From positions 14,444-78,443 of the IMG/VR virus record IMGVR_UViG_3300025251_000012: a stretch of DNA of 64,000 nt; one strand, given 5' to 3'. The DNA is from a virus (taxonomy: Duplodnaviria; Caudoviricetes). Below the pieces are notes generated by a model. It saw nothing but the letters and a program-made list of their open reading frames with translations. It made no database searches and had not been told where the DNA came from. Every line of letters begins with the position of its first letter. Position 1 is the stretch's first letter. Positions 6,827 to 49,912 of this stretch are shown piece after piece. The position numbers and the translations under genes were made by a program.

Positions 6827-6841
6827 TAATAGGAGCAAAGC

Positions 6842-7396: not shown

Positions 7397-7577
7397 GTAT
7401 GAAGCGGGTTTGATGCGGTTAGGGGATGAACAATTTTCCGACGCTATTAGTGGCGTACTGCCGCAGCTAGAGGGGCCAGCCGTCAAAAGCGGTGTTGTAG
7501 AAATTGACGCTCTAGAAGAAGAATTCTGGTCAGAAGTAGAAGGACTAACGGACTCTGTTAGTATAGACTTTGACTGA
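7236..7577 (+). CDS. Tail assembly chaperone extension (gpT-like), probably made by frameshift
   Basis: +1 frame relative to 6842..7396; RNWWYVQLTLPP motif and acidic end are typical of T-like extensions; no good own start/RBS. Confidence 0.55.
   Translation: MSWRPTKTVTFADTLARVAAMRRSRNWWYVQLTLPPIQPSPIYPTQPDLCPADRYEAGLMRLGDEQFSDAISGVLPQLEGPAVKSGVVEIDALEEEFWSEVEGLTDSVSIDFD
7262..7271 (+). promoter_or_regulatory. Candidate +1 ribosomal frameshift site UAC_UUU_CGC
   Basis: In-frame TTT(7265-7267) CGC; slipping to TTC(7266-7268) enters the 7236..7577 frame. Confidence 0.55.
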
Positions 7578-7586
7578 TAGGAGAAT

Positions 7587-9572: not shown

Positions 9573-9601
9573 TAGCTATTAAAGGGTAGTGGCGGAACAT
9601 A

Positions 9602-11587: not shown

Positions 11588-11598
11588 GAGTATAAACT

Positions 11599-13014: not shown

Positions 13015-13023
13015 GGGGCCGCT

Positions 13024-14910
13024 ATGAAATCCGGCTTTAATTTTAACCAGTTTGGCAGTAAAAAGCTTAGTGCGGCAGACCAGGAGAGGCTTGATGATAA
13101 ACGCGCCAGACTCCCCTTACACCCACCAATTGATAATTGGTACGCTAAAGCAACAGGTAGAGGGCGTCCAGGAGGTGGTAGGTCTACCCTTTATTATTTA
13201 ACAACCCGCCCGGTTTATTGGAGGCTTAAGAAGGGCGTACCAATGCTTCTACCCGGATGGAAAAAGGGGTCAGGCCCTTATAGGCCTGACCCACAGATTC
13301 TGCCTTTTGTAAGTTCAGTAAGTTATACAAAACGCCCGCAAATAACACCTGTGATGACGTTTGGTACCGTTCCAGCACGACAAGTTCGTTACAGAATGCT
13401 TTATGACATTAGCATATCGGGAATGGCTCCTACGATGGACCACCCAGGAATTAATATCATGCCGAGTGGTGGCGGTAAGGCTAAAAAGGTATCTGGTCCG
13501 CAGACGGGCGTAGAGATTCTTGATTCTCTGATTGAGTTTGTTGACAACTATACAAGGGCTCTAGGCCGAATGGGTAAGGGTACAAAACGTTACTACAGAT
13601 CAACTAACACAGAATTAATGATTTTCCACGCGCCCTATGAAAATCTGAATCTTTTTGTAGAGCCATTAAGTTTAAACTATTCGAGGAGTAAAAGCGGCTC
13701 TCATTTTGGGTATACCTATGACATTAATTTTATGGCTTGGGGCGAAGGTCTTTGGGCTTCGCCCGAGTACGCGCTTGATATTGAGCAGCAAGAGCTATCT
13801 TTTTTGGAGACCATGCAACAGGCCATAGCTCAAGGCGCTGATATTGCGAACCGGGCCGAGAGCATGGTTGTCGGAAATCTTATGCAGGCGCAGCACATTT
13901 ATATGAACGCGGTAGTTGGTTCAACACAAGCGCTTTCAACCGCTGTGACTGATCTTACCAGCGGCGTTGTTGGCGCTGTGACTGGGATAATAGGAAGTTT
14001 AGACGTTGCGTGTAAGAACTTTAAAACAGCATTTGGCAATCTTGTGCCACAAGTGGCCTACGCCTACGGAATCCCCACTTGGTGGAACAATCCAATTCTA
14101 GACAAAGCAGAACGATCCTATAGAGAAGGTACAGAGGGTTATCGAGCAGTTCAAACGTCACAACAGTTGGTGTACCAAAAAGCCAGCCAAAGCCCCACCC
14201 TTACAAAAAATTATAAGGATTTTGTGGATAAAATTCCGTACCCGTTTTGGACCACACAGGCGTTGGATTTTAATTTCGGCTCTATGCCCGGTTATGTGCC
14301 GCCACCAGATGCTGAAACTGAGCCCACAGAAGTTTACGTGGCTAAAGATGGAGACACATTTCAGTCTATAGCATTAGAGCAGTTAGGGTCTGTGGATATG
14401 TGGCCAGTTTTAATGCTACTTAATGGCGGCACCGAGGCCGATTTCTTAGCAGGACATAAGCCTCTGCACATGGGTGCAAAAGTTATTGTGCCTACTTCAA
14501 ACTTTAGTGCCGCACTAGGATCTTCGCCCACAGACGACCCATATTTAACGGATTATTTGCTGGCTGACGACGGAGATTTAGTCGCTGTTAATGACGAGTT
14601 TAACGACGTAAAGATTGTAACTGGTCCGTTGTGCCTTAAACAGGGTCTTCAGCATAGACTTTCTATGCGCACAGGCGACTCCTTAGTATTTCCAGATAAT
14701 GGGCTGGCGTTTGGTGCGGGAGACAACATCTCTATGGAGACTAGTGTGTTTATTTCTGAAGATGTGAAGAATCAAATTCTTAGCGATCCAAGGATTATAG
14801 AGTATAAACTATTAGAACTCATAGACGTAGGGCACGCAATCGAAGTAAACTCCCAGGCGACGGCGATTTCTGGGGCTTCTATTTCTTTAACGGTGCCAGT
14901 AAATTCATAG
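13024..14910 (+). CDS. Fused tail-initiator / LysM / gp25-like baseplate wedge protein
   Basis: LysM motif VYVAKDGDTFQSIALEQLGSVDMWPVLMLLNG; C-term LKQGLQHRLSMRTGD...ILSDPRI resembles gp25/gpW. Confidence 0.65.
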   Translation: MKSGFNFNQFGSKKLSAADQERLDDKRARLPLHPPIDNWYAKATGRGRPGGGRSTLYYLTTRPVYWRLKKGVPMLLPGWKKGSGPYRPDPQILPFVSSVSYTKRPQITPVMTFGTVPARQVRYRMLYDISISGMAPTMDHPGINIMPSGGGKAKKVSGPQTGVEILDSLIEFVDNYTRALGRMGKGTKRYYRSTNTELMIFHAPYENLNLFVEPLSLNYSRSKSGSHFGYTYDINFMAWGEGLWASPEYALDIEQQELSFLETMQQAIAQGADIANRAESMVVGNLMQAQHIYMNAVVGSTQALSTAVTDLTSGVVGAVTGIIGSLDVACKNFKTAFGNLVPQVAYAYGIPTWWNNPILDKAERSYREGTEGYRAVQTSQQLVYQKASQSPTLTKNYKDFVDKIPYPFWTTQALDFNFGSMPGYVPPPDAETEPTEVYVAKDGDTFQSIALEQLGSVDMWPVLMLLNGGTEADFLAGHKPLHMGAKVIVPTSNFSAALGSSPTDDPYLTDYLLADDGDLVAVNDEFNDVKIVTGPLCLKQGLQHRLSMRTGDSLVFPDNGLAFGAGDNISMETSVFISEDVKNQILSDPRIIEYKLLELIDVGHAIEVNSQATAISGASISLTVPVNS

Positions 14911-14925
14911 GCGAGGAAAACAGGC

Positions 14926-16563
14926 GTGCCTTACGTACCTAGATTATATGATGAGCTTTTCCAGTCATTACTGGCGCGGGTGGTCACACAGTCTAAACTT
15001 ACGGACGTAAGCCCAGGCTCTGTGCTGACGCATTTATTGGGCACTGTTGCTCAAGAGATAGAACTGGCAGAATATCGGCTAGAGCAAATCCGCGATTCTT
15101 TTGATTTTGATAATGCTAGTGGTTCAGACCTTGATCTAAGGATTCAAGACCTACCTTTGGCCCAAATTTGGCGCAAAGAAGCTTCAAAGGCTTCTGGCGA
15201 GGTTATGCGGCTAACATTAGTACGTCTTGAAACTTCTCCAGACGAACTAGAAATACCGGCGGGCTTGATCTACAAACGTTCTGATAACGAGGATGTGTCT
15301 TATATACAAACAGCTACTGTTTTTGTAGATATGACCGTCGCTCCATCTGGCGGCCCATGGGTTGTTGATGCTACGCACGAATACCCAGATCCCAATAACC
15401 CGCTAGTTGCCGGTATTAGGGTGCTTTCTACTGCCGCTGGGACCATTGGTAATGCCAGTAAGGATATTATTGACCTCTCCCCAGTAGGCGCTCCAGACGA
15501 AATAGTCGCCTCTACAAATGTGTTCCCCTGCATTGGGGGCACTGATGGTGAAAGTGACGCTGCTTTAAAAGCCCGGGCCAGAAATTATTTGGGGGCCTTA
15601 AGTCGAATAACATCTGCTGCATTGATGTATATAGCCAAGACGTTTTCTTCGACGGATGGCACTACTTTTAAGCACGTAAGCGTGTATGAGCCCGTCGAGG
15701 TTAAAGGGTACACAGAACTTCTTGTAGATCCAGGCTCCGCTAACCTCTCTACTGGGGCTACACTGGCTCAAAACTATTCCAAATCTAGTGCAAAAACAAT
15801 CTATAGTTGGCCTTATGATAGTGATCCGCCGCCATATTTTACGCACGAAGCCCCTTCCGTGGAAGATCTTACAGATGACAACGTTCTTTTAGGTGGTTTT
15901 TGGGAAGGCTGGGCTGGCCCAGAAGACTGGGAATCCTCTCTTGTTTATTACCCATTGTCGCACCCCAAGGTGCGGCAAATGTTCGGCATACCAGACGGCG
16001 AAAAGTTTGTACTATCTATTGGCGAGCGGGGTATCTTGTATTTAAACACGGACTACAAAATTAAGTGGTCCGATGTCTCAGCAGATACGCAAATAGCGGT
16101 CTGGGGGCAAAGCATTAACTTTGCAACCTATGGCCATTTACTTTCTATTGGAAGCGACGAAAATCCCGTTAGAGTTTACATAGGGGCACTTGCAGAATTT
16201 CAAGCAATAATAGAGGGAGATCCTAGTGATCCTGTGGCTATGCCCGGGTATCGCCCTGCCGGTACGCGAGTAAGAGTAGTATTACCTACGACACAGTTTG
16301 TTACTGGCGGCGTCAGCCTTGATATTACGTATGCAGTAGGCGCTGATATTGAAGCGGCTGGACCCGAGGTTCTGAATAGGGTTCTTTACTATGCGGCGGA
16401 ATTAGGCCCCGGAGATCCCCTATTGGTGGCTGAACTGTATTCAACTATCATGGCTATTGACGGTATTATAAACGTCCATGTAAAAAAACCGCTAAATGAC
16501 GTGTGGCCCATCGACGCACGGCATTCTTTAAGAATAGATCCTGACGAGATTGATCTTTTCTAG
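14926..16563 (+). CDS. Baseplate J-like wedge protein
   Basis: TDVSPGSVLTHLLGTVAQE, FDNASGSDLD, AAGTIGN, GGTDGESDAALKAR are Baseplate_J motifs. Confidence 0.85.
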   Translation: MPYVPRLYDELFQSLLARVVTQSKLTDVSPGSVLTHLLGTVAQEIELAEYRLEQIRDSFDFDNASGSDLDLRIQDLPLAQIWRKEASKASGEVMRLTLVRLETSPDELEIPAGLIYKRSDNEDVSYIQTATVFVDMTVAPSGGPWVVDATHEYPDPNNPLVAGIRVLSTAAGTIGNASKDIIDLSPVGAPDEIVASTNVFPCIGGTDGESDAALKARARNYLGALSRITSAALMYIAKTFSSTDGTTFKHVSVYEPVEVKGYTELLVDPGSANLSTGATLAQNYSKSSAKTIYSWPYDSDPPPYFTHEAPSVEDLTDDNVLLGGFWEGWAGPEDWESSLVYYPLSHPKVRQMFGIPDGEKFVLSIGERGILYLNTDYKIKWSDVSADTQIAVWGQSINFATYGHLLSIGSDENPVRVYIGALAEFQAIIEGDPSDPVAMPGYRPAGTRVRVVLPTTQFVTGGVSLDITYAVGADIEAAGPEVLNRVLYYAAELGPGDPLLVAELYSTIMAIDGIINVHVKKPLNDVWPIDARHSLRIDPDEIDLF

Positions 16564-28482: not shown

Positions 28483-30008
28483 TGCTTACAGCGTTTTCAA
28501 AAACGGAAATGGCTTTTAGGGACACTCTTTTGATGAAGAGTGACGCGAAGTCTTTTGATGCCCTGGCTGGGCAGTATGGCTTCCCAAGACCGCATTGGAT
28601 TCCAGTTGAAAACTGGCGCAGAGCTTTACAGTGTGTGCTCCATGGGCCTAGGGGCACTTTGCATACATTAAGAGCTTTTTTACACCATGCTTTAATGCCA
28701 TGGACGATTCCGTACACTTGGACGGCCGGTGCGGCCGTCCAGCAGTGGCACGTAGATCCGTTGTCCGGTAGTGTTGTAGCTAGGCCTGCAAAACAACCGT
28801 TTGTCTTTGCTTCGACTTATGTACCCGCCGGGTCTAAAACAGGCGTCCCGGTTATGAGTGAAATCGACCTGTCTTTTAGAGAAACTTGGCTAAGGCCTAT
28901 TCAAGAGGCGTATGCGGAGAGCGTAGTCACAACTCCCGCAGTTTTTGATGATGATGGGAATCTTGTTTCTGGGGCCGAAGAGGTGCCCGGTGGCGAATGG
29001 ACATTTAAGCCCTCTTTTGTAGACGCCAACGGCGACTGGATAGACCAAACTTTTATGGGGTATCCAAAGCACCCGTGGAAGTTTCATCATATAGCGAGCA
29101 CTTCAAAGGCAAACACATTCGTAAGTTTGTTGGGGTTCGATACTGGGTATCATGCTGGAAGCCTAAAATTAATTACAGACGACCCAAACCCAACGGATAA
29201 AGTTTCCGCAGAGTACAAGGCCTTGTACACCATGAAGGATGAAGGGGAAGGCTTTATCTCACCGTATGTGATTTCAGAGCGTAGCGGTGGGTTTGGTAAC
29301 GTTGGTACAAGTTTGCTTACTAAAGAGCACTATGGCGGGGAAGCCGCCCACGTGCGCATACACTTATTTTTACATGAAGTGCCCGTATTTGTTTTTGAAG
29401 AGGGCATGGGCACTTATCTTATTTGTGGGGTTCCGCAGTTTCAACCGCCCGCACCGTTGGGGCCGCAGCAGCCCGTAGACCCATTGGTCACGGGAGAGCA
29501 GGCAGCGGCAAACCCGCTGATGCAGTATCCGAGTGGTGGCGAACGTTTAGAAGGCCAACCTTGGGGTGGGCACATGCAAATAAGTGAATTGCACCCGTTC
29601 GGCCCAGCATTGTTTTTTCCCGGTGGAATGGACAGATGGCCGCCCTATTTAACGGGTACAGGTGATAACCCAGAAGCAAACAAATATGAGGCTGGGTTCA
29701 AAAATTCGCTTGAAGAAGCGATACAAAAACTGATTCCGGTTGGTATATCGTGGGAGATTATTAAAGGTTGGGGTGATGGCCTGCCCTCATCCTATGCCCC
29801 AAACGCATCTACTGGCACAATTGTACGTAGCTTTCCGTGGCCAGCAAAGGGATACCCATCAAACGCAAATTGGGAAAATGTCGGTGCGGGAGCGGCAGAA
29901 GGTTCCATTGGGTATATACCCCCGTTCATTATTAAACCCATACTTCCCCCTCCTGACCCGGACCCGATCCCACCGCCCCCTGACCCAGACCCACTACCAG
30001 ATATATAA
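28482..30008 (+). CDS. Baseplate wedge/fibre-attachment protein (gpI-like N-terminus), Pro-rich C-terminus
   Basis: FDALAGQYGFPRP...WRRALQCVLHGPRGTLHTLRAFL resembles gpI/DUF2313-type; ends PPPDPDPIPPPPDPDPLPD. Confidence 0.5.
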   Translation: MLTAFSKTEMAFRDTLLMKSDAKSFDALAGQYGFPRPHWIPVENWRRALQCVLHGPRGTLHTLRAFLHHALMPWTIPYTWTAGAAVQQWHVDPLSGSVVARPAKQPFVFASTYVPAGSKTGVPVMSEIDLSFRETWLRPIQEAYAESVVTTPAVFDDDGNLVSGAEEVPGGEWTFKPSFVDANGDWIDQTFMGYPKHPWKFHHIASTSKANTFVSLLGFDTGYHAGSLKLITDDPNPTDKVSAEYKALYTMKDEGEGFISPYVISERSGGFGNVGTSLLTKEHYGGEAAHVRIHLFLHEVPVFVFEEGMGTYLICGVPQFQPPAPLGPQQPVDPLVTGEQAAANPLMQYPSGGERLEGQPWGGHMQISELHPFGPALFFPGGMDRWPPYLTGTGDNPEANKYEAGFKNSLEEAIQKLIPVGISWEIIKGWGDGLPSSYAPNASTGTIVRSFPWPAKGYPSNANWENVGAGAAEGSIGYIPPFIIKPILPPPDPDPIPPPPDPDPLPDI

Positions 30009-30020
30009 AGGAGCCTATAA

Positions 30021-32216
30021 GTGTCTTATAAACCTCTGTTTCCTATTGATAGTGACGAGGCCGAAGAACGGCCTACAGAGCTAACTATAGGTGACTTCTC
30101 CACTACAAGGTTTGTAAGTCTTCTTAAGAAGCTTGGTATTAAGGGCAGCATAAAAGTGGGTAAACCAGGGAAAATATCTGTGTACCCATTTAATCTAACG
30201 CCGCGACTTGGCCGCCTGTACCAAGAACAGAAAAAGAGTTTGAACTTTTGTGACCTAGTTAAGGCTGCTAACTTTGTGGCTCCACCAAAAGCGAACGCGG
30301 AAGCCGCTGCGGAAGCACCGGTTGGCACGGTTCATTATTGGAAAACAGGGCCGCATAAGAAAGTTGCGCCGGGGAAGTGGGTGCCAGTTACAGAAGAACA
30401 CGCTAAAAAGTTAATGGAAACGAAGCAAAGACCTCCGCAAAGGGTTAACGACCCAGACAAGGAATGGGGCAATGATCTCGATAAGAAAAATGATGATGGC
30501 ACGGTCACGCTTTACCACCGGACTAGCGCTGAAGGAGCGCAGGGTATTACAGAAAGCGGTACGTTCTATTCAAAAGAATACGATGGTTCGGCGTATTTCT
30601 CTACACGTGATCATGGGGCGGCTTCCAGTTACGGCGACCACCTTATCGCGGTAGACATTGATCCGGGTTACGTCCATTTAAATGATGAGTTTTCTGATGG
30701 GGAAGTGCATGTACGTGTAACCCCCGAAAACCACCAGAAGATGCGGAACTTGCAGGTTTTAGAGGGCGGTGCATTTGAGGACGTTGTAGAAGGGTTTGAG
30801 TACGCAGACAAGCTGGCGATGTGGGTAGAAGACCAGGGTATTGAAGACGCAGCCACTTTTGCCGCAGCAGATCTAGGGGGCACTGGCGCTAAGGATACTA
30901 ACGAGGTCACGACGCACATAGAGAATAATACAAGTGGGCAAATAGACAGGGCCGGTGCAAGGGCTGAACTTTCCAAAACAGGCGACTGGCATTACCTCCA
31001 TAAAGTTTCGGTAGACGCTGTAGACACAAAGACGCACGGGGACGTTGAGCCTAGTGGTGAAGAAGACCTTGATGTGCCGATTGTGATCAACGCCAAGGGC
31101 GAAGTTATTGATGGCCGTCACCGGGTAGAGTTAGCGCGAAAGCGGGGTATCAAAGAGTTACCAGCTTACATGCCAGCATCAAAGTACTGGGAAGATAACT
31201 TAGAGGTAGATGAACCCGACCGGGGCGTATTTTTCGGTGACGAAAAGAAGCCACCCCCCGAAGGGTGGACGATGGAGGACGGGCTTAAAAAGCTTTCTGA
31301 AACGCCGTCCGACGACTTCATGGAATCGGGTTATGGCACAGAACCGGCCGATTATTGGCTTCATATTGAAGACGCTATTGAAAACGTGTTCGATGGCGCA
31401 AAATTACCGGGTGGCTACAAAGCGCGGGATTATAATGTAACCCCGTTTCAAGTTAGCGAGGATGATTACACGTATCGTGGTGTAGGGTCTGAAAAATACA
31501 CTCAGGGGGTTGAGGTAAGTGGCGATATAGATGTAGTTGACACTAAAACCGGGGTGACACTAGATACGATTGGTACGTATCACCGCGAGTTCACAATTAA
31601 TTCCGAAGGCGACTTGGAAGTGCACCATGGGTCGCTATTTCTTAATGCTCACGTCCAAGGCGAAGGAATCGGATCCGCCTTTATAGCTCATAGCCTCGAA
31701 TCCTATGGCCCATTAGGAGTAAAGAAAATAACCATAGAGCCCGCAGAGGTTGGTGCTTATGTTTGGGCACGCCTCGGGTTTAGTTGGGGAAGCCCCGACA
31801 AAGCCGAGCGGAATCTTATCCCCTTTGTGGCCCGGGAAATTGCGGAAGAAGTTAATAGGGTGAACCGGGGCACAGAGGGGTATGTTGACATGACATACGA
31901 CGAAGCTGTGAAGATAGCGAGGAAGCATAAAGAACCTCATGATCTAGCCAGACTTCATGTTGGCGAGTTACACCTAGGGAAAGAGCTTCTGATGCACAAT
32001 TCGCGCTTGTGGAAGAAAATGGGTGGTGCCGCAATGGATATCCCAAGTAAAGAACATACCCGCCTTACAGAACATTTGAGTAAAAAGACAGCGGGGCGGC
32101 TGCAAAAAGCGGGCAAAAAAGGCGGCAAAAAGAAACAGATCTCACTTGGCGAAGATATGTTAAATGATGCAGATGCCTTTGGAGAGGCTATAAACCTGTC
32201 CAGAGAGGCGGAGTAG
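30021..32216 (+). CDS. Polyvalent protein: ADP-ribosyltransferase-like + ParB/Srx-like + GNAT-like domains
   Basis: TLYHRTSAEGAQGI...AYFST...A..YG...E (ART); PIVINAKGEVIDGRHRVELARKRGIKELPAY (ParB/Srx); HVQGEGIGSAF...KITIEPAEVGAYVWARLGF (GNAT motifs A/B). Confidence 0.7.
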   Translation: MSYKPLFPIDSDEAEERPTELTIGDFSTTRFVSLLKKLGIKGSIKVGKPGKISVYPFNLTPRLGRLYQEQKKSLNFCDLVKAANFVAPPKANAEAAAEAPVGTVHYWKTGPHKKVAPGKWVPVTEEHAKKLMETKQRPPQRVNDPDKEWGNDLDKKNDDGTVTLYHRTSAEGAQGITESGTFYSKEYDGSAYFSTRDHGAASSYGDHLIAVDIDPGYVHLNDEFSDGEVHVRVTPENHQKMRNLQVLEGGAFEDVVEGFEYADKLAMWVEDQGIEDAATFAAADLGGTGAKDTNEVTTHIENNTSGQIDRAGARAELSKTGDWHYLHKVSVDAVDTKTHGDVEPSGEEDLDVPIVINAKGEVIDGRHRVELARKRGIKELPAYMPASKYWEDNLEVDEPDRGVFFGDEKKPPPEGWTMEDGLKKLSETPSDDFMESGYGTEPADYWLHIEDAIENVFDGAKLPGGYKARDYNVTPFQVSEDDYTYRGVGSEKYTQGVEVSGDIDVVDTKTGVTLDTIGTYHREFTINSEGDLEVHHGSLFLNAHVQGEGIGSAFIAHSLESYGPLGVKKITIEPAEVGAYVWARLGFSWGSPDKAERNLIPFVAREIAEEVNRVNRGTEGYVDMTYDEAVKIARKHKEPHDLARLHVGELHLGKELLMHNSRLWKKMGGAAMDIPSKEHTRLTEHLSKKTAGRLQKAGKKGGKKKQISLGEDMLNDADAFGEAINLSREAE

Positions 32217-32222
32217 GTGCAT

Positions 32223-32381
32223 ATGAGCGGTAACGATATCGGTCATCGTGACTGGCGAATGCGTCTGCGCGAACAAGAAAGAATGTATATAAACGCCGCA
32301 GTATATCATGGTGATAAATACTTTGTGCGGCTGCGGACCAAAAGGTATAGACGTGTAGCCAGTACTTCTGGCACATGCTGA
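32223..32381 (+). CDS. Small basic protein (52 aa, below ORF-track cutoff)
   Basis: My translation MSGNDIGHRDWRMRLREQERMYINAAVYHGDKYFVRLRTKRYRRVASTSGTC; fills gap, AGGTG upstream. Confidence 0.4.
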   Translation: MSGNDIGHRDWRMRLREQERMYINAAVYHGDKYFVRLRTKRYRRVASTSGTC

Positions 32382-32900: not shown

Positions 32901-33260
32901 ATGTTTAAAAAGTTAAAACCTAAGTTCTTTTGGGGCAGCCGCGTTCCTGGGTGGCTTGGAAAAATACTACCCTTTAAGCCAGACGCGGTTAGCTTCTTAT
33001 GCTTTGTTTGGGTTAGATATCCGCACAAAGATAGGCGCTTACAGGATCACGAAACGATCCATTTTCAGCAACAATTAGAGTTGTTATTTGTTCTACAGTG
33101 GTTGTTGTACAGTCTTTTCTATCTAAAAAGACTGTACGACTACAGGAATGTTTACCAAGCATATTTGCAAAATCCTTTTGAAAGGGAAGCCTATTCAAAT
33201 GAAGGAAATAGACAATATCTAGAGCACCGCCCTAGGTTTGCGTGGTATAAATATATTTGA
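32901..33260 (+). CDS. Small HExxH zincin-like protein (DUF4157-like)
   Basis: HETIHFQQQ...NPFEREAY. Confidence 0.55.
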   Translation: MFKKLKPKFFWGSRVPGWLGKILPFKPDAVSFLCFVWVRYPHKDRRLQDHETIHFQQQLELLFVLQWLLYSLFYLKRLYDYRNVYQAYLQNPFEREAYSNEGNRQYLEHRPRFAWYKYI

Positions 33261-33679: not shown

Positions 33680-35518
33680 ATGAGTACTTTTAAAGACGGC
33701 CAATTAATTTCTCGAATTATCGGCACTGGCGAACTCGGTGTTGGCCGCACCATTGACGGTGTTGACATTTCTGCCCATGCTAATGCGACAAATAACCCTC
33801 ATTCGGTCACTGCGGACCAAGCAAGTACGTCTACTATTAAGCTGGACTCCACTGGTACGGGTAAAATCGGGGTAGGGACTACTAGCCCTGTTCAAGCGCT
33901 CCATCTTAAAGGCAGTAACGCTTTTATTAAGCTCGAAGGCTCGGACGCGGCTAACGTCGAGTGGACCGTAGGCGTCGAAGGCGAAGACAATTTTATTATT
34001 CGCGACGACACGGGCGATAACAAGCGGCTTGTCATTGATAGTTCCGGTAACGTCGGAATTGGCACCAGCACCCCGGGCGCTAAACTGTCCATTCCTTGTC
34101 CTAGTGGTACCGTCCTTGAGTTTGGTGCCGCACAAAACCAAATTATGAAAGTTGTGGGTGTTTCGGGCACAGACACGGCCGGTAAAACACTATCCATTGC
34201 GGCGGGTGCGGGTACAGGTACTGGCGTTAGTGGGAATTTGATTTTTTATGTTGCTAATGCGGCCACAAGTACTGGAACAAGTGTCAACGGGCTCACAACG
34301 GCTTTGACCCTAACCGCGCAAAGCGCTGCTGCTGTTAGTGCAGGCCAAACCGGCCCGACAGCCACGTTTGCCGGTAACATCGAGTTGGGCGACCAACAAA
34401 GTATTCTGTTCGGTTCCGCAACGACAAGTGGGCAGAACAACGGCGATGTGGGTCTCAGTTGGAGCACGGATGGCACCCACGCTCTACAGTTCAATTTTAC
34501 AGGCGCTGACGAAGACGACTCAGGTGCTGGTGGTATTCGGATTGGCAGCGGGGCAAACCCGAAAGAGCAAATTGGTGCTTGCTTTGATGCCCAGATTCGA
34601 CGGGGGCACGCGACAACCGCGTGTTCGGGTTTCAAAGCTACTATGGATAACTCGTCTGGAGCACACGCGGCCGGTGCTGGCGCGGTCATGTTTGGTTTTC
34701 AGGCGGCAATGACGTGCGATGGCTCAGACAACGCAGGCTCTAACTATATCGGGTTTGATGTTGGAATTGATGGTCTAGACAGTAACGGATCGCCACCTCA
34801 ATTCACTGGGTACAACGTAACGCATGCGTCCGGTAAAGTGTTGGATACAGCTTTTGGGATTGGTGATAATGCTGGGAACTCTTATTTCCGCATTGCACAT
34901 ACCGGAGATTCGGGCGCGGGTGCGGGCGACGGAACGATTAACAACGTAGCTGGTTCGCTTCAGATTCAATCCGCAGAAGACATTATCTTCAAAAGCAACA
35001 GCGTTGAATGTGGGCGTGTACATGATGTGACCGGCCCGCCTGCAAATTCATCGGCAACAGCCGGGGGGCTTGGATTCCGTAGACGCGTTTTGACAATTGA
35101 TGCGGGAGGCGGCAACGCGTCAGTAACGCTAACAGCAGCGGATTCAGGTTCAATGGTGGTTTGCGCTCCGGGGTCAAACTGGATTGCGATTACACTACCC
35201 GCTATTACGGCAGGCCTTGAGGGTGTTTTCTTTGAGTTTGTTCTCGCGGAAGGCGATACCGTTCAAACCGGCAAATACGTTTCGATTGAGTGTGCTGGTG
35301 CTGACGGCAATGACGATCTTATGGGACAATTGACCTTAATTGATCGAAGTTCAGGCGCACCCGTAACCATTAGCGATATTGACGGCGATAAATTCATATG
35401 GCCCGAAGATGTCGAGGGCGGATCTTCCGCTAAGTTTACGGCGGTAGCAGGCGGGGCCAACGAGTCATGGCTCGTACAAGCGACTCAGAGCGGTGCGCAA
35501 GCAACGATTACTGACTAG
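33680..35518 (+). CDS. Tail fibre / receptor-binding-like protein
   Basis: GKIGVGTTSP and GNVGIGTSTP fibre repeats; C-terminal LTAADSGSMVVCA...ITLPA...GVFFEFV domain. Confidence 0.6.
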   Translation: MSTFKDGQLISRIIGTGELGVGRTIDGVDISAHANATNNPHSVTADQASTSTIKLDSTGTGKIGVGTTSPVQALHLKGSNAFIKLEGSDAANVEWTVGVEGEDNFIIRDDTGDNKRLVIDSSGNVGIGTSTPGAKLSIPCPSGTVLEFGAAQNQIMKVVGVSGTDTAGKTLSIAAGAGTGTGVSGNLIFYVANAATSTGTSVNGLTTALTLTAQSAAAVSAGQTGPTATFAGNIELGDQQSILFGSATTSGQNNGDVGLSWSTDGTHALQFNFTGADEDDSGAGGIRIGSGANPKEQIGACFDAQIRRGHATTACSGFKATMDNSSGAHAAGAGAVMFGFQAAMTCDGSDNAGSNYIGFDVGIDGLDSNGSPPQFTGYNVTHASGKVLDTAFGIGDNAGNSYFRIAHTGDSGAGAGDGTINNVAGSLQIQSAEDIIFKSNSVECGRVHDVTGPPANSSATAGGLGFRRRVLTIDAGGGNASVTLTAADSGSMVVCAPGSNWIAITLPAITAGLEGVFFEFVLAEGDTVQTGKYVSIECAGADGNDDLMGQLTLIDRSSGAPVTISDIDGDKFIWPEDVEGGSSAKFTAVAGGANESWLVQATQSGAQATITD

Positions 35519-44082: not shown

Positions 44083-44240
44083 GCCTACTTCGGGACATTT
44101 TACTTACAGGCATTGGCCTAAATTGTGGGCTTTTGCTTTTCAGCCTTGCAAACGGCGAGTCAACAGGGGTTTTTGTTGCGCTTATTAGCGGGATATTTTG
44201 TGCAGCAGGGGCGGGGTATGTGCGTGCGAAAATGGGCTAA
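44079..44240 (+). CDS. Small two-helix membrane protein (53 aa, below cutoff)
   Basis: My translation MSLLRDILLTGIGLNCGLLLFSLANGESTGVFVALISGIFCAAGAGYVRAKMG; ATGA overlap with vWA gene. Confidence 0.55.
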   Translation: MSLLRDILLTGIGLNCGLLLFSLANGESTGVFVALISGIFCAAGAGYVRAKMG

Positions 44241-44379
44241 ATCAACAGTCAGGCAGTTGGCCGGTTCGCTGATATTTGTGCTGGTGTGTTTTGCAACAGC
44301 GGCGGTATTTGCGCCAACGGCCGAAGATATTGGTGACCGAAAATGGCAGACGGGCAGTGGAGCTTTAGAAGAGGCGTGA
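44218..44379 (+). CDS. Small single-pass membrane protein
   Basis: C-terminal part of ORF 44125..44379; LAGSLIFVLVCFATAAVFA. Confidence 0.4.
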   Translation: MCVRKWAKSTVRQLAGSLIFVLVCFATAAVFAPTAEDIGDRKWQTGSGALEEA

Positions 44380-44642
44380 ATAGGGCACTTGGCAGGGGGA
44401 CAAGGGTAGAGGTTAAAAGGCCTATTGAGGTCACTTGCCCAACTAAAGATAAGACTATCCAAATAGTCGTTGCCCAAGGCACTACCGGAACCATCTTAGA
44501 AATCATACCGAACCTTCGTGTTCGACTTGACGATGTGTACGAGGGGAAAATCCGGGAAATACGGTGGCATTCAAGCGCAAAGATTAACGACGACTTGGTT
44601 TCTATTGATGACGAAGAGAGGCGATTGTGGGTGGTCAAATAG
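44343..44642 (+). CDS. Hypothetical small beta-rich protein
   Basis: ORF within + island; true start may be GTG near 44376. Confidence 0.45.
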   Translation: MADGQWSFRRGVNRALGRGTRVEVKRPIEVTCPTKDKTIQIVVAQGTTGTILEIIPNLRVRLDDVYEGKIREIRWHSSAKINDDLVSIDDEERRLWVVK

Positions 44643-45511
44643 TAAGATTATTTTTGGCGTTCTTAGTAGTGATAGCGCTTTCTTGTGCGGGCACAACCGG
44701 TGGGTCTACAGCAGTTACACAGCCTAAACTGCCCAGGGCCTCATTCGTTTTCTTGACGCACACATATTCAGAAAACCTTTGCCACAAAGACCAATGTATA
44801 CCGGCAAGTAGGGTTAAATTTGTTGGGTCAGGGTTTTCCATAGCAACAGATAAAACCGGATCGCTAATTATGACGGCTGGGCACCTTTGTAAGCGTCCGG
44901 TCCCTAAGTACACAGGCGGCTTTAGGATGTCTACTGAATCTAGTATGACAGCGGCAACCCCAGGCGGGGGGAAATACCCTGCAAAGGTGCTTGCGGTATA
45001 CACGGGAATTGACGCGTGTGTGTTGAGGATCGACGGTGTGCACATAACCCCTGTTAAATTTGCAACCGAGGCACCAAAATATGGGGAGCGTGTTTATGCA
45101 CTTGCGGCCCCGCTTGGGTTGTACTCGTCCGAGATGTTACCGAAATTCGAGGGCTTCTACTCTGGCAGCGCTTATAAGGTCGCAAAACCTTCCCCATGGA
45201 CAGGCTCTTTTGATGAACTAACTATTTACACAATACCCACAAGAGGTGGCAGCAGCGGTGCCCCGGTATTCAATTCAAAGGGCGAGGTCATTGGAATTAT
45301 AATCATGGCCGCTATTAGCCTAGAAAACTTGTGCTGGTCCCCAACATTTGAAGCCCTACAACAGATTTGGTTAGCTTTAGAGCGAGAGGCATATGGGAAA
45401 AAGAAAGAAGAAGGCAAAAACAGTTGGGAAAGAGGCGCAAGCGCGCCCAACAATGAAAATTTCACACCGGAATATGTTAAGTGTTTCCTCACAAAAGAAG
45501 AAGCGAAATAA
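44627..45511 (+). CDS. Exported trypsin-like serine protease (lipoprotein-like signal)
   Basis: Triad TAGHLC / IDACVL / RGGSSGAPVFN; N-term LFLAFLVVIALSC. Confidence 0.85.
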   Translation: MGGQIVRLFLAFLVVIALSCAGTTGGSTAVTQPKLPRASFVFLTHTYSENLCHKDQCIPASRVKFVGSGFSIATDKTGSLIMTAGHLCKRPVPKYTGGFRMSTESSMTAATPGGGKYPAKVLAVYTGIDACVLRIDGVHITPVKFATEAPKYGERVYALAAPLGLYSSEMLPKFEGFYSGSAYKVAKPSPWTGSFDELTIYTIPTRGGSSGAPVFNSKGEVIGIIIMAAISLENLCWSPTFEALQQIWLALEREAYGKKKEEGKNSWERGASAPNNENFTPEYVKCFLTKEEAK

Positions 45512-45676
45512 GCGTACAAAAAAATGACCCCTATAAGTTGTGGTGTGTTCTTCCAAACCCACAAGTTGTTGGGTACTTTAAATAGCTACTACTACTAAAA
45601 GTTATGACTATTTGCAGCTTTCTCGCGCGTAAGACGTGGGTGGCCCGCAATATCTGACAGGATTTCTGAAAGTTTT

Positions 45677-46279
45677 TTATCTTTTTCTGTGAATGGAGTC
45701 CGAGCCCTCGGTTTCCATTTCATTTAAAGGCAGCCTGTTAAAGATCTGGTTGTCATACATTTCAAGCAGGCGTTTCATGCTTCTTACTCTTCTAGCGTAA
45801 CCCTTTGACCTTTTATTACACACGCGCCCAGCATTGTAATGACACTGGTAACTGTCGCCGTAGGCATTTTTAAACTTTTTTACTGCCTTTAGACCCGCAG
45901 CTATGACATCGCAGCCACGTGCACGCCGTTTGGGGCAGAAGTACCTAGGCAAAATTTGTAGTGGCCCTATGGCCCCAGCAGATGACACAGCAGTCATAGA
46001 GAATTTGCTTTCGTAATAACCAATGGCGACGACCTCTGGGATAGAGAGTCCGTAGTCTTCGGCCTTACTAGCCAAGGTGACGCACGTCTTCATGCGCGGC
46101 GGAAGGTTTTTAGCTAGTTTATTTCTGTAACTTTTAGACCCCACGTTATGAAATAGCGTAGACAGGGCAAGAGCACAGTGTACCTCTGCTCTTAAAGAGG
46201 GCGTGTCCTGGTTTTTTGCGAACGCAAGATCTGTGATTCCAATATGGAAGATGACGGCCAGCGCTATAATCAAGTTCAT
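45677..46279 (-). CDS. Lytic transglycosylase (SLT domain) with N-terminal signal/anchor; endolysin candidate
   Basis: VVAIGYYESKFSMTAVSSAGAIGPLQILP and HYNAG motifs; hydrophobic N-terminus. Confidence 0.8.
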   Translation of the reverse strand: MNLIIALAVIFHIGITDLAFAKNQDTPSLRAEVHCALALSTLFHNVGSKSYRNKLAKNLPPRMKTCVTLASKAEDYGLSIPEVVAIGYYESKFSMTAVSSAGAIGPLQILPRYFCPKRRARGCDVIAAGLKAVKKFKNAYGDSYQCHYNAGRVCNKRSKGYARRVRSMKRLLEMYDNQIFNRLPLNEMETEGSDSIHRKR

Positions 46280-46301
46280 TTTTAATCCAATGTCCTAACG
46301 T

Positions 46302-47936
46302 TTAGAACGGCGTAGTTATGTTTAAAACAGCCGGTATCGCATTAGCAAGCTCATCGTTATGCGTAACAACAAATACCAATCTGTCTGTGCTTATCTCAGA
46401 CAGAACATCGACGATAGCAGCCACGCCGTCCGAATCTAGTGCGTCAAACACCTCATCAAACATCATGGCTCCCGAGTAGCCGGAAGCGGCTTCAGCTATA
46501 GCCCCCAACCCCAACATTAGCGCTACGTCCACCCGCCTACGTTGGCCGCTGGATAGCGCTTTATACCCATTACCGCCCCCGCCACCGTGGATGTGGAGGC
46601 TTATTGTGTCCACGACCTTCCCGCTGGCTTGCACAGTTTCGCCGCTTAATTCTATGCTAAGGTCCGTACATAAGCGCGATAGCCACGAATTAGCCGATGC
46701 TTGGAGCCCGTTTAGTGCGTTTGTAACCACTTGGGCACGGACACCTCTTGTGTTCAGAACTGTGGCAACGTGGCCTAAGACATCAACCTTGTCCTGTAGT
46801 TCAGACTTTTCATCGCCAAGCGACACCGCCTCTTCTTCGTGGGCGGCTTTAGAAGCAAGAAGCTGCTTCTTACTACTCTCAGCTTCTTTGGCAAAGGTTG
46901 TACTCTGGATTACAGAACGCATTTTGGTGTCTAGGTGATAAGACGCCTCGGATAGCAAATCGCAATCTCCGGTCAGTTCTTCTAGGTTGACAGTTAACGC
47001 AGATAGGGAAGCCCTCTTAGTTTTATGCTCTGCGGTTAGGGCCGCTGTAGTTTCATCTATCACAGCGCGAACGTTGTCCCGGTATTCTGCGCGTATGTCT
47101 TGGAAGCATGTAGGACACTTAGCATCTTTAATATTTTCAACCTTCTCTGCTTCAAAGCTAAGTTTTGATTCAATAGTTATTACGTCTTTACGACAGCTTC
47201 TTACTTCAGCGCTAACTTCAGAAACCTCACTTTGTGCCTGTTTATATTGTTCCTCAAGTTTAGACAGTTTGTCTTCAAGGACTTTTAAGTCGTCTGTAGG
47301 CCCTAGATTCTTCTCATATTTTTCGTAATCAGAAATTCGATCTTTAAGGCTTTTAATGCGCTCTTGTAAAATTTCACTGCCCTGCTCTAATTTCACAAGA
47401 TTCCCTTTACCGGTATTCAAATCAGTCCGACACAGCATGTGAGCACTGTCGAAACGATCTACGCCTAACACCTCTTCGAGCAACCTTTTTCGTTCTTTGT
47501 CCGAAGCCATAGAAAAGTACACGGCATCAGAAGATGAAAAGACCCTGCTACGAACCCAAAGGCCGAAGTCCCCAACGATTGACTCTAAAGCCTCTTGCGC
47601 AGCGCTCATGGTGGGAAACTCTGCGGGATCTTCAAAGGTGCCGTCATGGTTGTATTTCCAACCCATTTGGGTGCGCCCATTTTCCCGCCGCCTAATAATG
47701 TAAACTTCATCAGTTGTGAGTCCCACCTCACAAGCGACTTCATCGTCCCCACCTGGGATAGTTCCGCGAAGTGTTTTGCCCCAAACAGCCCAGCAAATAG
47801 CTTCAATAATCGTGCTTTTACCGGTGCCGTTAGCCCCAGTTATGACCACGGCACCCTTCTTAGGGAATGTTAGTGTGAAGCCATTCAACCCGTGAAAGCC
47901 CGTGACCTCTATGTGCAGAATATTCATGCTAGGCAT
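46302..47936 (-). CDS. SbcC/Rad50/gp46-like recombination ATPase
   Basis: GANGTGKS Walker A, CPTC zinc hook, LSSGQRRR signature, FDEVFD Walker B. Confidence 0.92.
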   Translation of the reverse strand: MPSMNILHIEVTGFHGLNGFTLTFPKKGAVVITGANGTGKSTIIEAICWAVWGKTLRGTIPGGDDEVACEVGLTTDEVYIIRRRENGRTQMGWKYNHDGTFEDPAEFPTMSAAQEALESIVGDFGLWVRSRVFSSSDAVYFSMASDKERKRLLEEVLGVDRFDSAHMLCRTDLNTGKGNLVKLEQGSEILQERIKSLKDRISDYEKYEKNLGPTDDLKVLEDKLSKLEEQYKQAQSEVSEVSAEVRSCRKDVITIESKLSFEAEKVENIKDAKCPTCFQDIRAEYRDNVRAVIDETTAALTAEHKTKRASLSALTVNLEELTGDCDLLSEASYHLDTKMRSVIQSTTFAKEAESSKKQLLASKAAHEEEAVSLGDEKSELQDKVDVLGHVATVLNTRGVRAQVVTNALNGLQASANSWLSRLCTDLSIELSGETVQASGKVVDTISLHIHGGGGGNGYKALSSGQRRRVDVALMLGLGAIAEAASGYSGAMMFDEVFDALDSDGVAAIVDVLSEISTDRLVFVVTHNDELANAIPAVLNITTPF

Positions 47937-49008
47937 CTCCCCGTTTCAAATAAGCAAGGGTTGTATCTAAAACCGCTTCCTTTGTGGCATCGGGTATATC
48001 CATACCAGCAATGTAAGTAGACGCCAGTTCTTCTATAGAATTAGTGCCACTTTTAACCGCTTCTACAGCATTCTTAGCCGATTCGCGGCAAGCAGAGACC
48101 GAAACATCGTGGATGATATCTAGAATACGAGCGTCTTTTTCTAGCTCCTGGATATAATCCGCTGGCAAAAGTTCAGACTTTATTTTGAAGCGTGCAAAGT
48201 TTTTTGCATTGAGCTTTCTCAGGACATCTTCCGCTTCGGTGGGCGTGTCTATATTAAAGTAGCGTGGGCCAGGTACTTGCACGCTTTTAATATCGCCCGC
48301 ATTGTACGTAGTAACATGCCCATAATTATGTCCCAGGTTGTCCCATCCCGTAGGGACTAGGGCTCCGACTTGTACAATCGGTTGCTTATTAGGCCCAGCC
48401 CATTGCTTACGATCATGCCAATCCCCCACAAACACGCCGCCAAGCTTATATTTATCGCACCAGCTACGCACCGTATGGATAGAAACAGACGACTCTGTAT
48501 TAACAAGCCACTCCGGGGTGTTGGTGTCACTAATACCAAAATGGGCAGCTAGGATAGTTCCTTCTGGAAAGTCTGCATCTTCTAGAACACCGCGCACGTT
48601 GTCTGCCATATTGCCCGGAATGAACGGCACAGCTAGTACAGAAGTACCGTTAAAACTTTCATGTGTTAGTAGGGTAGGGCTTGTTACGCAGTGAACGTGT
48701 GGAAGCCAGTCGAGAACAGAGATAGCAGAATCCCCTTCATGCGAAGATGCAATGTCGTGATTTCCTGCAAGAACAAACGTGGGCGTTTTGGGGTAAAGCG
48801 CATCGCCAGTTGCCTTCAGTATCGCTGGGTGCGGGTTATGCCTATCAAATAAATCGCCCAGAATAATTAGGGAGCCGTCAGCCGCTACGCCACTAGCAGT
48901 GCCAAAAGAAGTTATAACTTCTCGACACCTAGTGTTGATGTGCCCCACTAGCTCCCCGCCACACTTCTTATGGTTTCCTACGTGTACGTCGGCTATAAAA
49001 CTAATCAT
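47929..49008 (-). CDS. SbcD/Mre11/gp47-like nuclease
   Basis: ADVHVG, LGDLFD, AGNHD, AAHF, GDWH motifs; next to SbcC-like gene. Confidence 0.9.
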   Translation of the reverse strand: MISFIADVHVGNHKKCGGELVGHINTRCREVITSFGTASGVAADGSLIILGDLFDRHNPHPAILKATGDALYPKTPTFVLAGNHDIASSHEGDSAISVLDWLPHVHCVTSPTLLTHESFNGTSVLAVPFIPGNMADNVRGVLEDADFPEGTILAAHFGISDTNTPEWLVNTESSVSIHTVRSWCDKYKLGGVFVGDWHDRKQWAGPNKQPIVQVGALVPTGWDNLGHNYGHVTTYNAGDIKSVQVPGPRYFNIDTPTEAEDVLRKLNAKNFARFKIKSELLPADYIQELEKDARILDIIHDVSVSACRESAKNAVEAVKSGTNSIEELASTYIAGMDIPDATKEAVLDTTLAYLKRGDA

Positions 49009-49912
49009 CGGTTGGCTCCTTATCAGACCCTAACAAGCCCCACTCCCCGTTTTCACAGATTTCCAAAAGGGTGGGGTTGTCAAAAGAAAGCCGTTCCACC
49101 TGTATTTGAACGGCGTCATTGTTGTTGTCGATCAAAACATAACTGCGGTCATTACGTGCAGCGACCTCACCTAGGGTGCCGCTACCACTAAAGCAATCCA
49201 AACAACGGTCCCCCTGATTAGAATGGACCTTTATAATGCGCTCTAAAATACCCGCTGGTTTTTGCGTAGGGTAGCCTGTGCGTTCTTTGCCGTTAGTGGG
49301 TACAATTGTGTGCCACCAAACGTCGGTAGGTGTCTTGCCTTTAGCAGCCTTCTCCTTCCCCACCAATCCTGGTGCCATATAGGGAATGCGGTCCATGACG
49401 TCGTAATTGAAGGTATAGTTCTGCGGGTCCTTCGCGTACCACAGGATAGTGTCATGCTTGGTGGGCCACCGTTTCTTACTACGAGCCCCATAATCATAGG
49501 CCCATATGATTTCATTCATAAACGAATCGCGCCCAAAAATGTCGTCCAGCATCACCTTGACGTAGTGAACTTCTCGATAATCTAGATGTAGGAAGAACGA
49601 CCCATTGTCTGTTAATACACGATGGGCTTGCTCCAGACGTGGTTCCAGAAACTCAAGAAAACCATCAAATGTGTCGGTGTATTGGTAGTCGCTTATAACT
49701 TCGCTGTTGTATCGGTGCCCACCAAAACCAGTCCTGTCACCGGTTTCGTCTTGCGTTACTTGCAGTCGTTTTTGTCTGCGCGTTGTTCCGGTATTAAATG
49801 GTGGGTCAATATAAATAAGCTCAAACGAACTTTCCATAAAAGCAGCCAGTGCGCTGAGATTATCGCCACGGATTATCATCGAAGGCGTTACGTCGGATTC
49901 AAAAGTTATCAT
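49001..49912 (-). CDS. DNA methyltransferase, N6/N4 (beta-class) family
   Basis: IYIDPPF, YPTQKP, LDCFSGSGT. Confidence 0.92.
   Translation of the reverse strand: MITFESDVTPSMIIRGDNLSALAAFMESSFELIYIDPPFNTGTTRRQKRLQVTQDETGDRTGFGGHRYNSEVISDYQYTDTFDGFLEFLEPRLEQAHRVLTDNGSFFLHLDYREVHYVKVMLDDIFGRDSFMNEIIWAYDYGARSKKRWPTKHDTILWYAKDPQNYTFNYDVMDRIPYMAPGLVGKEKAAKGKTPTDVWWHTIVPTNGKERTGYPTQKPAGILERIIKVHSNQGDRCLDCFSGSGTLGEVAARNDRSYVLIDNNNDAVQIQVERLSFDNPTLLEICENGEWGLLGSDKEPTDD

Follow-up and report, generated by a model that had tools for sequence, protein, structure and literature searches.

The subject of this report is P0001, a gene in a 64,000-nucleotide stretch of DNA (hereafter the window) that comprises bases 14444-78443 of the 78,443-bp IMG/VR virus record IMGVR_UViG_3300025251_000012, the genome of an uncultured tailed phage rated complete by CheckV. 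We consider that P0001 probably encodes a polyvalent protein that is loaded into the capsid and, once injected, would reprogramme the host. AlphaFold2 models and fold searches place an ADP-ribosyltransferase (ART) fold, a ParB/sulfiredoxin (Srx) fold and a GNAT fold within one open reading frame (ORF) of 731 amino acids (aa). As modelled, three unrelated enzyme folds are therefore carried by a single polypeptide of the late operon. The ORF, on the + strand at 30021-32216, had been reported in a preliminary description of the window and is present as described there. The following segments of the gene are distinguished, with coordinates given in the window.

30021..32216, + strand: the predicted polyvalent protein gene P0001, with a GTG start and 731 aa, stop codon included.
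30021..30236, + strand: N-terminal leader, residues 1-72, a putative propeptide lost on maturation; it has no homologue.
30237..30269, + strand: part 1 of the leader tag, residues 73-83 (S-L-N-F-C-D-L-V-K-A-A), with a putative prohead-protease site after K81.
30318..30389, + strand: part 2 of the leader tag, residues 100-123 (P-V-G-T...H-Y-W-K-T-G-P...P-G-K-W-V-P-V), a basic-aromatic, Gly-rich motif.
30486..30770, + strand: minimal ART-fold domain, residues 156-250, with a candidate site formed by H166, Y192/F193, Y204, D222 and E228.
30786..30980, + strand: four-helix extension, residues 256-320, with a G-x-G-[AG]-K-[ST] loop (GGTGAK, 286-291), as placed by alignment A2 and the AlphaFold2 helices.
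30981..31202, + strand: ParB/sulfiredoxin-fold core, residues 321-394, with the DGRHR motif.
31203..31379, + strand: acidic, proline-rich linker, residues 395-453, with few homologues; of the four internal sites that vary among members of the P0001 cluster, two fall here.
31380..32105, + strand: GNAT-fold domain, residues 454-695, with motif A QGEGIG (546-551), motif B AYVWARLGF (579-587, including Y580) and a helical insert (592-666).
32106..32213, + strand: C-terminal tail, residues 696-731, Lys-rich and then acidic, modelled as a low-confidence helix (predicted local distance difference test score, pLDDT, about 40).

The modular organization of P0001 emerged from an exhaustive phmmer/HMMER scan of 1.84 billion cluster representatives, which returned 1018 representatives at E<=1e-3 and 105 at E<=1e-10, well beyond what chance would give. 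The matches fall in three sharply separated blocks, namely module A (residues ~150-245), module B (~256-393) and module C (~490-665), and there is almost no match coverage on residues 1-130, on the linker at 395-480 or on the tail at 665-731. Among the 150 best matches, 46 cover only A, 24 only B and 79 only C, and none joins two of the three modules. Many of the matched proteins are 1,000-7,600 residues long and carry the modules singly. Other collections gave sparser results. PHROGs placed a family of unknown function (phrog_6170) on residues 155-244 and a weak ParB match (PHROG 620) on residues 352-383. Among PDB sequences, phmmer found no match for the whole protein, and none was found for the ART or ParB profiles.

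Separate alignments were built for the modules: A1 with 18 ART homologues, A2 with 14 ParB homologues and A3 with 17 GNAT homologues. Two joint MAFFT alignments (A4 and A6) were discarded because they misplaced the ART homologues onto the ParB region; alignments A8 and A5 were judged sound, and A8 was checked by eye before folding. The resulting AlphaFold2 models have a mean pLDDT of 87.8 for residues 135-400 and of 79.7 for residues 434-731. The preliminary description had assigned ART, ParB/Srx and GNAT domains to positions that coincide with the three HMMER modules and with the three confidently predicted folds. It had also proposed a check by structure or fold search, and all three assignments held in AlphaFold2 and Foldseek, with conserved candidate motifs in each family. 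The motifs that it quoted are all present, including DLVKA (78-82), PVGTVHYWKTGPHKKVAPGKW (100-120), LYHRT (164-168), YFST (192-195), DGRHR (364-368), QGEGIG (546-551) and AYVWARLGF (579-587). All three modules appear to come from families that lack a Pfam model, and hence they extend the catalogue of phage effector modules.

Foldseek searches of the PDB with module A returned the ART toxins TreTu and RhsP2, Tpt1/KptA, domain 4 of CNFy and diphtheria toxin. The model has the split beta-sheet of the ART fold, with six strands. In this model H166 ends strand 1 (V-T-L-Y-H-R-T), Y192 and F193 lie in strand 2, Y204 follows 11 residues past F193, D222 is the last residue of strand 4 and E228 is at the start of strand 5. 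Eight residues (H166, T168, F193, G205, D222, F224, E228 and H230) are invariant across the 18 ART-module homologues, which share 36-44% identity. As modelled, the candidate active-site layout of a His, an aromatic-x10-Tyr and an acid is that of the diphtheria-toxin/PARP (H-Y-E) clade. An R-S-E site of the kind found in the Alt/VIP2 clade was considered for module A and ruled out, since the invariant residues are H, F/Y and E/D and the closest structural matches fall in the H-Y-E clade.

The ART domains of established polyvalent proteins are of the H-Y-D type and are related to Tox-ART-HYD2 (PMC5512222). Among the 18 ART-module homologues, Pfam detected no ART-PolyVal domain (PF18760), and its sole match was one weak Tox-ART-HYD1 (E=0.01). 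When A1 was compared by hhalign with a protein carrying two ART-PolyVal domains, only the strand-1/helix-1 motif at the start of the domain (Y-H-x-T-S-x-E-A-A) was aligned, and weakly so (E=0.0044, probability 7.8%); an hhalign comparison of the ART profile with P0024 was uninformative. Module A is probably a distant, shortened relative of ART-PolyVal that stands outside that Pfam family as modelled. Its sequence identity to TreTu (7zhl), RhsP2 (7rt7), the catalytic domain of diphtheria toxin and Tpt1/KptA is 12-14%, and P0001 differs from the Rhs ART toxins in having neither an Rhs/secretion context nor an immunity gene. These nearest structures act on EF-Tu (TreTu), RNA (RhsP2 and Tpt1) and EF-2 (diphtheria toxin), and the target of P0001 may be a protein, RNA or DNA.

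Fold searches with module B matched the N-terminal ParB domain of pNOB8, the ParB proteins of Caulobacter and Myxococcus, Noc, PadC, sulfiredoxin and the ParB/Srx-fold serine kinase SerK. Within the motif I-D-G-R-H-R-V-E-L-A, all 14 homologues share D364, G365, R368 and A372, and at least 90% of them keep R366 and H367. The core is always accompanied in these homologues by the four-helix extension, whose conserved loop sits between helices 2 and 3. The extension matches LPD36 in verbal description only (four helices and a GXGU motif). LPD36 was suggested to bind nucleotides and precedes the DarB-type methylase in other polyvalent proteins (PMC5512222).

Neither of the Pfam families ddrB-ParB (PF18763) and ParB_N (PF02195) matched P0001 or 14 ParB-module homologues, and the sole overlap of ddrB-ParB with a copy of module B is a sub-threshold match in P0097 (E=0.007). 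Because the homologue P0011 carries a true ddrB-ParB domain at residues 817-949 beside a copy of module B at 1372-1485, module B represents a separate ParB family. Its partners are those of polyvalent proteins. P0131 combines it with PBECR5, two ART-PolyVal domains and LPD39, P0035 with InPase, and both P0029 and P0042 with Prim-Pol. Two longer members of A2 carry DarA_C or the MuF-type domain Phage_min_cap2. The genes for P0011 and P0035 are part of phage head modules, where an S78 protease gene stands on one side of them and portal, LPD1-LPD29 or Snf2 helicase genes on the other. Module B also recurs with GNATs. The order in P0097 (719 aa) is ParB-GNAT-ParB_N, with Acetyltransf_7 and Acetyltransf_10 matches at E 4e-4 and 3e-3 that are below the Pfam cut-offs, and the order in P0005 (329 aa), whose module B is 63% identical to that of P0001, is a RimI-like GNAT followed by ParB. 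The repeated association of the ParB module with GNATs of other families hints at a functional coupling of both activities.

Searches of PDB sequences with the module C profile retrieved only GNATs, aligned on motif A. The pyrophosphate loop for acetyl-CoA, Q/R-x-x-G-x-G/A, is conserved in the 17 homologues, as are Y580, W582, A583 and G586. Pfam GNAT models do not match the copy in P0001. In the homologue P0008, the copy at residues 406-501 is overlapped by a below-cutoff stretch of Acetyltransf_10 (448-494), and another copy, at 1572-1645, has a strong match to Acetyltransf_1 (E 8e-16). Compared with RimI/RimJ/RimL-like and AtaT/TacT-like GNATs, the P0001 domain has no Pfam GNAT match and has a helical insert of 75 residues (592-666) between the core and the last strand. 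Unlike those families, its family also builds arrays: giant proteins including P0004 (7601 aa), P0006 (3212 aa), P0008 and P0012 carry module C in four- to ninefold tandem, an unusual arrangement in itself. Pfam GNAT models recognise these arrays, and in P0012 the copies stand beside Abhydrolase_8 and a Gln_amidase papain-fold toxin domain. The nearest GNATs acetylate ribosomal proteins, histones or aminoacyl-tRNA.

Two alternative accounts bear directly on what these domains do. One is that at least one of the three modules is catalytically dead and only binds, such that P0001 would be a structural or decoy internal protein. The minimal size of the ART module (about 90 aa) and its lack of a Pfam match would fit this idea, which we nevertheless consider highly improbable. 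The putative catalytic and cofactor residues of the modules are invariant or nearly so in distant homologues at 25-45% identity, a pattern typical of active enzymes. The other is that P0001 is an ART and GNAT toxin fusion, of the toxin-antitoxin or polymorphic type, serving host killing, superinfection exclusion or competition, possibly with immunity conferred by a small ORF. The fold neighbours do include the toxins ParT, RES, DarT, AtaT and TacT of toxin-antitoxin systems as well as the Rhs toxins TreTu and RhsP2, homologues of the GNAT module are found within giant proteins that also carry Gln_amidase toxin and Abhydrolase_8 domains, and an Arg-rich ORF of 54 aa directly follows P0001. However, no recognisable immunity or antitoxin partner was found, likeness of fold to toxins reflects superfamily and not function, and the ParB module and the leader tag tie P0001 to phage head cargo. 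We therefore regard a toxin fusion as quite improbable.

The interpretation of P0001 as injected cargo draws on what is known of polyvalent proteins. In the published model, such proteins enter the host from the virion in which they were packaged, and ART and GNAT domains are typical neighbours in them (PMC5512222, Iyer et al. 2017). Architectures combining ART and GNAT are known from gammaproteobacterial (pro)phages and from an uncultured Mediterranean phage (PMC5512222). P0001 has the hallmarks of this class: at least two unrelated activities are predicted in one polypeptide from its folds, its gene lies in a phage late/virion context (coupled to fibre and baseplate genes), and its domains are shared combinatorially, as seen in PBECR5, ART-PolyVal, LPD39, ddrB-ParB and InPase as partners of the ParB module. 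Its disparate enzyme domains, with an ART next to a GNAT and a ParB-superfamily domain, resemble those that Iyer and colleagues described among late virion genes. P0001 differs from their proteins in that it matches neither ART-PolyVal nor ddrB-ParB, lacks a zincin MPTase domain, is small at 731 aa and is located in a fibre operon. The preliminary description had already called it a polyvalent protein, and this holds in that its modules recur in bona fide polyvalent proteins encoded near portal, MuF, Snf2 helicase and prohead protease genes. The polyvalent class and the pairing of ART with GNAT were thus already known (Iyer et al. 2017, PMC5512222). What is new is that three modules apparently without Pfam models occur together, no two of which are joined in the best 150 matches, in a gene outside the head module that bears a lineage-wide tag.

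If P0001 is head cargo, its life cycle might proceed as follows. The protein would be made late, together with the tail-fibre proteins, and its internal leader tag (F-x-D-L-V-K-A, then H-Y-W-K...G-K-W) would route it to the prohead during assembly. Cleavage after K81, and possibly also at a second site, L-Q-K-A (694-697), would then fall to the prohead protease (genome 11881-12681), which is likewise proposed to trim the capsid protein, the scaffold and the Snf2-like helicase at h-x-K|[A/S/G] sites. The mature protein, of roughly 650 residues, would leave the head with the DNA. In the new host, the ART module could transfer ADP-ribose from NAD+ onto a host protein or nucleic acid, the GNAT module could acetylate a host protein or an aminoacyl-tRNA-like substrate, and the ParB/Srx module could contribute NTP-dependent DNA binding or nicking. 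Their joint effect might be to blunt host defence or to redirect host machinery before phage genes are expressed. The L-Q-K-A sequence straddles the start of the C-terminal tail, which possibly serves in DNA binding or as a second processing site.

Two well-studied phages offer precedents for such a route. The Alt protein of T4 is packaged in the capsid, trimmed by a protease and ejected with the DNA (PMC5512222). P0001 resembles Alt in being a late-expressed ART encoded near baseplate or tail genes and in its proposed route of packaging, trimming and ejection. The likeness to Alt suggested in the preliminary description stands as far as the ART fold but fails for the active site: Alt is an R-S-E ART without ParB or GNAT domains, whereas the candidate residues of P0001 are the H, aromatic-x10-Y and E of the H-Y-E type. 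A capsid-targeting sequence is reported for T4 (Mullaney and Black 1996). The T4 signal is N-terminal and is cut by gp21 at L/I-x-E, whereas the candidate site in P0001 is L-V-K|A at residue 81.

The second precedent is phage P1, in which the large enzymes DarB, DdrB and DarA are packed in the head and injected. DdrB has a ParB-superfamily domain, as P0001 does, and fusions with DarA_C or MuF-like domains occur among homologues of the ParB module. A DarB-like Snf2 helicase is likewise encoded in the head operons of the phage studied here and of its relatives, and this helicase bears the same tag as P0001. P0001 differs from the P1 proteins in lacking a methylase or helicase and in having a ParB module outside the ddrB-ParB family, and an ordered assembly of the Dar type is not known for this phage.

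P0001 occupies positions 44464-46659 of the genome. Upstream of it is the head module, which is followed by neck, sheath, baseplate and fibre genes. The features needed to describe this context are given below.

Window 30008..30013, + strand: strong Shine-Dalgarno sequence AAGGAG, 7 nt before the GTG of P0001, overlapping the end of the upstream stop codon.
Genome 118-1677: terminase, in the head module, upstream of the window.
Genome 4549-6324: portal, in the head module, upstream of the window.
Genome 6581-7705: MuF-like protein, in the head module, upstream of the window.
Genome 7811-11599: Snf2/Sno-like helicase of 1262 aa, in the head module, upstream of the window.
Genome 11881-12681: prohead protease, in the head module, upstream of the window.
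Genome 12681-13472: scaffold of 263 aa, in the head module, upstream of the window.
Genome 13494-15038: major capsid protein, in the head module.

The stop codon of the upstream gene lies 12 nt before the GTG of P0001, and no terminator was found on the + strand between P0001 and the preceding genes. Because the Shine-Dalgarno sequence overlaps that stop codon, the arrangement suggests that P0001 is co-transcribed and coupled with the tail-fibre operon. On its 5' side are a gene for a 1080-aa fibre protein and then three unannotated genes. On its 3' side are the 54-aa ORF, a beta-rich protein of 165 aa, a 119-aa protein with an HExxH motif, another of 119 aa and a Gly/Ser/Thr-rich, fibre-like protein of 612 aa. 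The preliminary description had placed the gene inside the virion module, which is correct insofar as it belongs to the late structural operon, but that part of the operon is the fibre region and not the head module.

This location invites the idea that P0001 is a tail- or baseplate-associated effector, delivered from the tail tip like the cargo of a contractile injection system. The gene directly follows tail-fibre and baseplate genes and precedes the Gly/Ser/Thr-rich fibre-like gene, and the nearest Pfam-bearing Atlas cluster of the nearby HExxH protein, eCIS_core, offers a weak lead in the same direction. No tail-attachment domain was detected in P0001, however, and its leader tag is common to proteins of the head operon and not to tail proteins. 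Moreover, the tail lumen of phages is normally filled by the tape-measure protein. Delivery from the tail tip consequently seems improbable.

The preliminary description had proposed that the KA site and the GKW motif of P0001 may be a signal for the prohead protease or for capsid targeting. A search of the phage's remaining head genes for the exact motifs GKW, HYWK and L[VIL]KA yielded nothing beyond an LVKA in the middle of the terminase and GKWs attributable to chance. The signal appeared in this genome only once an optional Glu and comparative data were allowed. In the relaxed form [FY]-x(1-2)-[DE]-L-[LIVM]-E?-K-A, it occurs three times in the proteome of 25,329 residues, at residues 45 and 1032 of the helicase and at residue 76 of P0001, a count reached in none of 300 shuffles. 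A second pattern, P-x-G-T-x4-K-T-G, is common in this proteome to the helicase (residue 1093) and P0001 (residue 100) only. The exact motifs are not shared with other head genes, but the proposal gains support from comparison: the signal recurs on the head-operon helicase and is enriched at the N-termini of related head proteins.

This enrichment was observed in two sets of relatives. In two head modules fetched via homologues of module B, which together comprise 29 genes, there are six instances of L[LIVM]KA within the first 60 residues (0 of 1000 shuffles), and the carriers include Snf2 helicases, polyvalent-type proteins and a protease. Across 80 loci that were fetched only by capsid similarity, there are 24 occurrences in the first 80 residues as compared with 6.4+-2.3 expected (maximum 13 in 200 shuffles), and no excess in the rest of the proteins (19 vs 19.0 expected). 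Tagged proteins at these capsid-related loci include a Strawberry-notch/Snf2 helicase, a methyltransferase-bearing protein, a portal and several prohead proteases (P-L-L-V-K-A-D-N-P-N-G-G). A short peptide near the N-terminus is in this way common to several head or head-internal proteins of the lineage, as judged with post hoc patterns and with some duplicated loci.

The second part of the tag follows the first more often than background would predict. A motif of the H-[KR]-Y-x-K / G-G-K-x-R-Y / G-K-W type lies at most 50 residues past the tag in 15 of 66 cases (23%), compared with 1.5% of random windows. The G-P-x6-G-K-W spacing of P0001 equals that of the motif G-P-F-I-G-P-R-G-G-K-W at the N-termini of the module B homologues P0007, P0011, P0013 and P0035. 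Additionally, the scaffold has ten [LIVM]-x-K-[ASG] sites where 1.4 are expected and the prohead protease has five where 1.1 are expected, an excess consistent with cleavage after Lys by the prohead protease. D-L-N-K-A and L-A-K-A are found at the N-terminus of the capsid protein. Related capsid proteins keep the aligned Ala residues (A25 and A36) without exception, and the preceding Lys is not conserved in locus L003.

Prohead proteases themselves display related sequences. Those at loci L025, L033, L039 and L003 begin with F-x-x-W-x-P-[LM]-L-V-K-A-D-N-P-N-G-G, in which L-V-K-A falls within residues 12-22 and may be an autoprocessing site. The protease of the phage studied here has the variant F-N-I-V-E-K-G.

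We tentatively propose that this bipartite leader ([F/Y]-S/x-F/x-x-[D/E]-L-[LVM]-(E)-K-A and then, no more than ~50 residues on, H-[KR]-Y-x-K...G-G-K-x-[RW]-Y / G-K-W) is an undescribed, portable signal for capsid targeting and prohead-protease cleavage. It would be used across a lineage of marine phages with SPO1-like heads to load the head from any gene position, with P0001 as the first example outside the head module. We regard this proposal as plausible but not quite probable. A literature search found no paper on this tag or on an L-x-K|A rule for prohead proteases. If the tag does act in targeting and cleavage, it would account for the mobility of cargo genes within the genome, and it would supply a handle for loading foreign proteins into phage heads. 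If it is indeed portable, P0001 shows how cargo repertoires diversify.

The cluster of P0001 at 90% identity has nine members on ~40 metagenome contigs. Seven are full-length members of 731 aa that have at most three residue differences, and two are short fragments on contigs of 1.3 and 4.9 kb. A word-indexed search recovered only this cluster and one partial relative of 407 aa, and a related-locus search of IMG/VR with P0001 found no relative. Among 50,697 phage records, tblastn found no match to the whole protein or to the GNAT module, and only marginal matches (E about 2e-3) of the ART module in mycobacteriophages and of the ParB motif in an Acinetobacter phage. The N-terminal leader has no paralogue in the genome, and ESM Atlas is blank for the first 140 residues. 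In the complete 70.7-kb genome of a relative, G001, the syntenic site past the fibre genes is empty.

Relatives that lack P0001 bring to the fore a further account, according to which the protein is not packaged at all. It would be a late or leaky early cytoplasmic modifier that acts in the producing cell, like ModA and ModB of T4, on targets such as defence proteins, translation factors or proteins bound to phage DNA, and the shared motif would be an interaction or regulatory peptide. The position of the gene among fibre genes and outside the head module agrees with this account, as does the internal placement of the tag at residue 73, and the relatives without P0001 indicate that the virion has no structural requirement for it. 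Even so, the tag is otherwise concentrated at the N-termini of head proteins, the portal and prohead protease among them, and on Snf2 helicases whose position resembles that of P1 DarB, and all three modules recur in classic polyvalent proteins and in packaging contexts. For these reasons an unpackaged cytoplasmic modifier seems unlikely to us, and packaging followed by injection remains the interpretation that we favour.

Several observations nevertheless weigh against packaging and injection. We infer virion incorporation, cleavage, ejection and both enzyme activities of P0001. The gene lies within tail-fibre and baseplate genes on the late strand, 30 kb away from the head module, whereas nearly all tagged proteins of relatives are encoded in the head module, and the P0001 tag begins well inside the protein instead of at its N-terminus. 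Across 149 domain homologues the tag occurs 3 times as compared with 1.6 expected, which is no overall enrichment and only a mild one in the first 60 residues. The tag patterns were written after examples had been seen, and several of the loci are near-duplicates. With regard to the domains, the whole protein has no Pfam match at E<=1 (ART-PolyVal, ddrB-ParB, ParB_N and GNAT included), module A is very small, as mentioned above, and its candidate catalytic residues were placed by secondary structure and motif spacing and not by superposition. Lastly, a homologue of P0001 is absent from five related phage genomes, two of them complete. The gene is therefore dispensable for this type of virion, as an accessory, swappable gene of the cargo type would be.

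Polyvalent proteins are predicted to be the first weapons that phages deploy, and almost none have been tested. P0001 is small, its three domains are well separated, modelled with confidence and provided with clear candidate catalytic residues, and it recurs nearly unchanged on ~40 contigs. It thus offers a tractable model for asking whether a phage delivers ADP-ribosylation, acetylation and a ParB-type activity as a single unit.

A few additional features of the relatives and of the surrounding genes were noted. G001 (loci L086-L089) encodes at 44144-49300, on the - strand, a protein of 1718 aa between its portal and MuF genes. This protein has an internal tag, I-L-M-K-A ... G-G-P-Y-R-G-P-R-G-G, at residue 891, and represents different cargo in the same lineage.

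The 54-aa Arg-rich ORF (window 32217-32381, + strand) fills most of the gap between P0001 and the next gene. Two genes past P0001 (window 32901-33260, + strand), the 119-aa protein has H-E-T-I-H as its HExxH motif and E-R-E-A-Y downstream of it. This protein is labelled 'protease' in PHROG 15610 and belongs to a purely viral family in the Atlas, where eCIS_core is found in 29% of the members of the nearest Pfam-bearing cluster and gives no more than a lead. The protein could be a free-standing zincin peptidase for cargo processing, comparable to the MPTase domains of other polyvalent proteins. The 612-aa protein (window 33680-35518, + strand) is rich in Gly, Ala, Ser and Thr, has no PHROG or Pfam match and looks like a fibre or spike. 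If it is one, P0001 is embedded inside the fibre cluster and does not stand at its very end.

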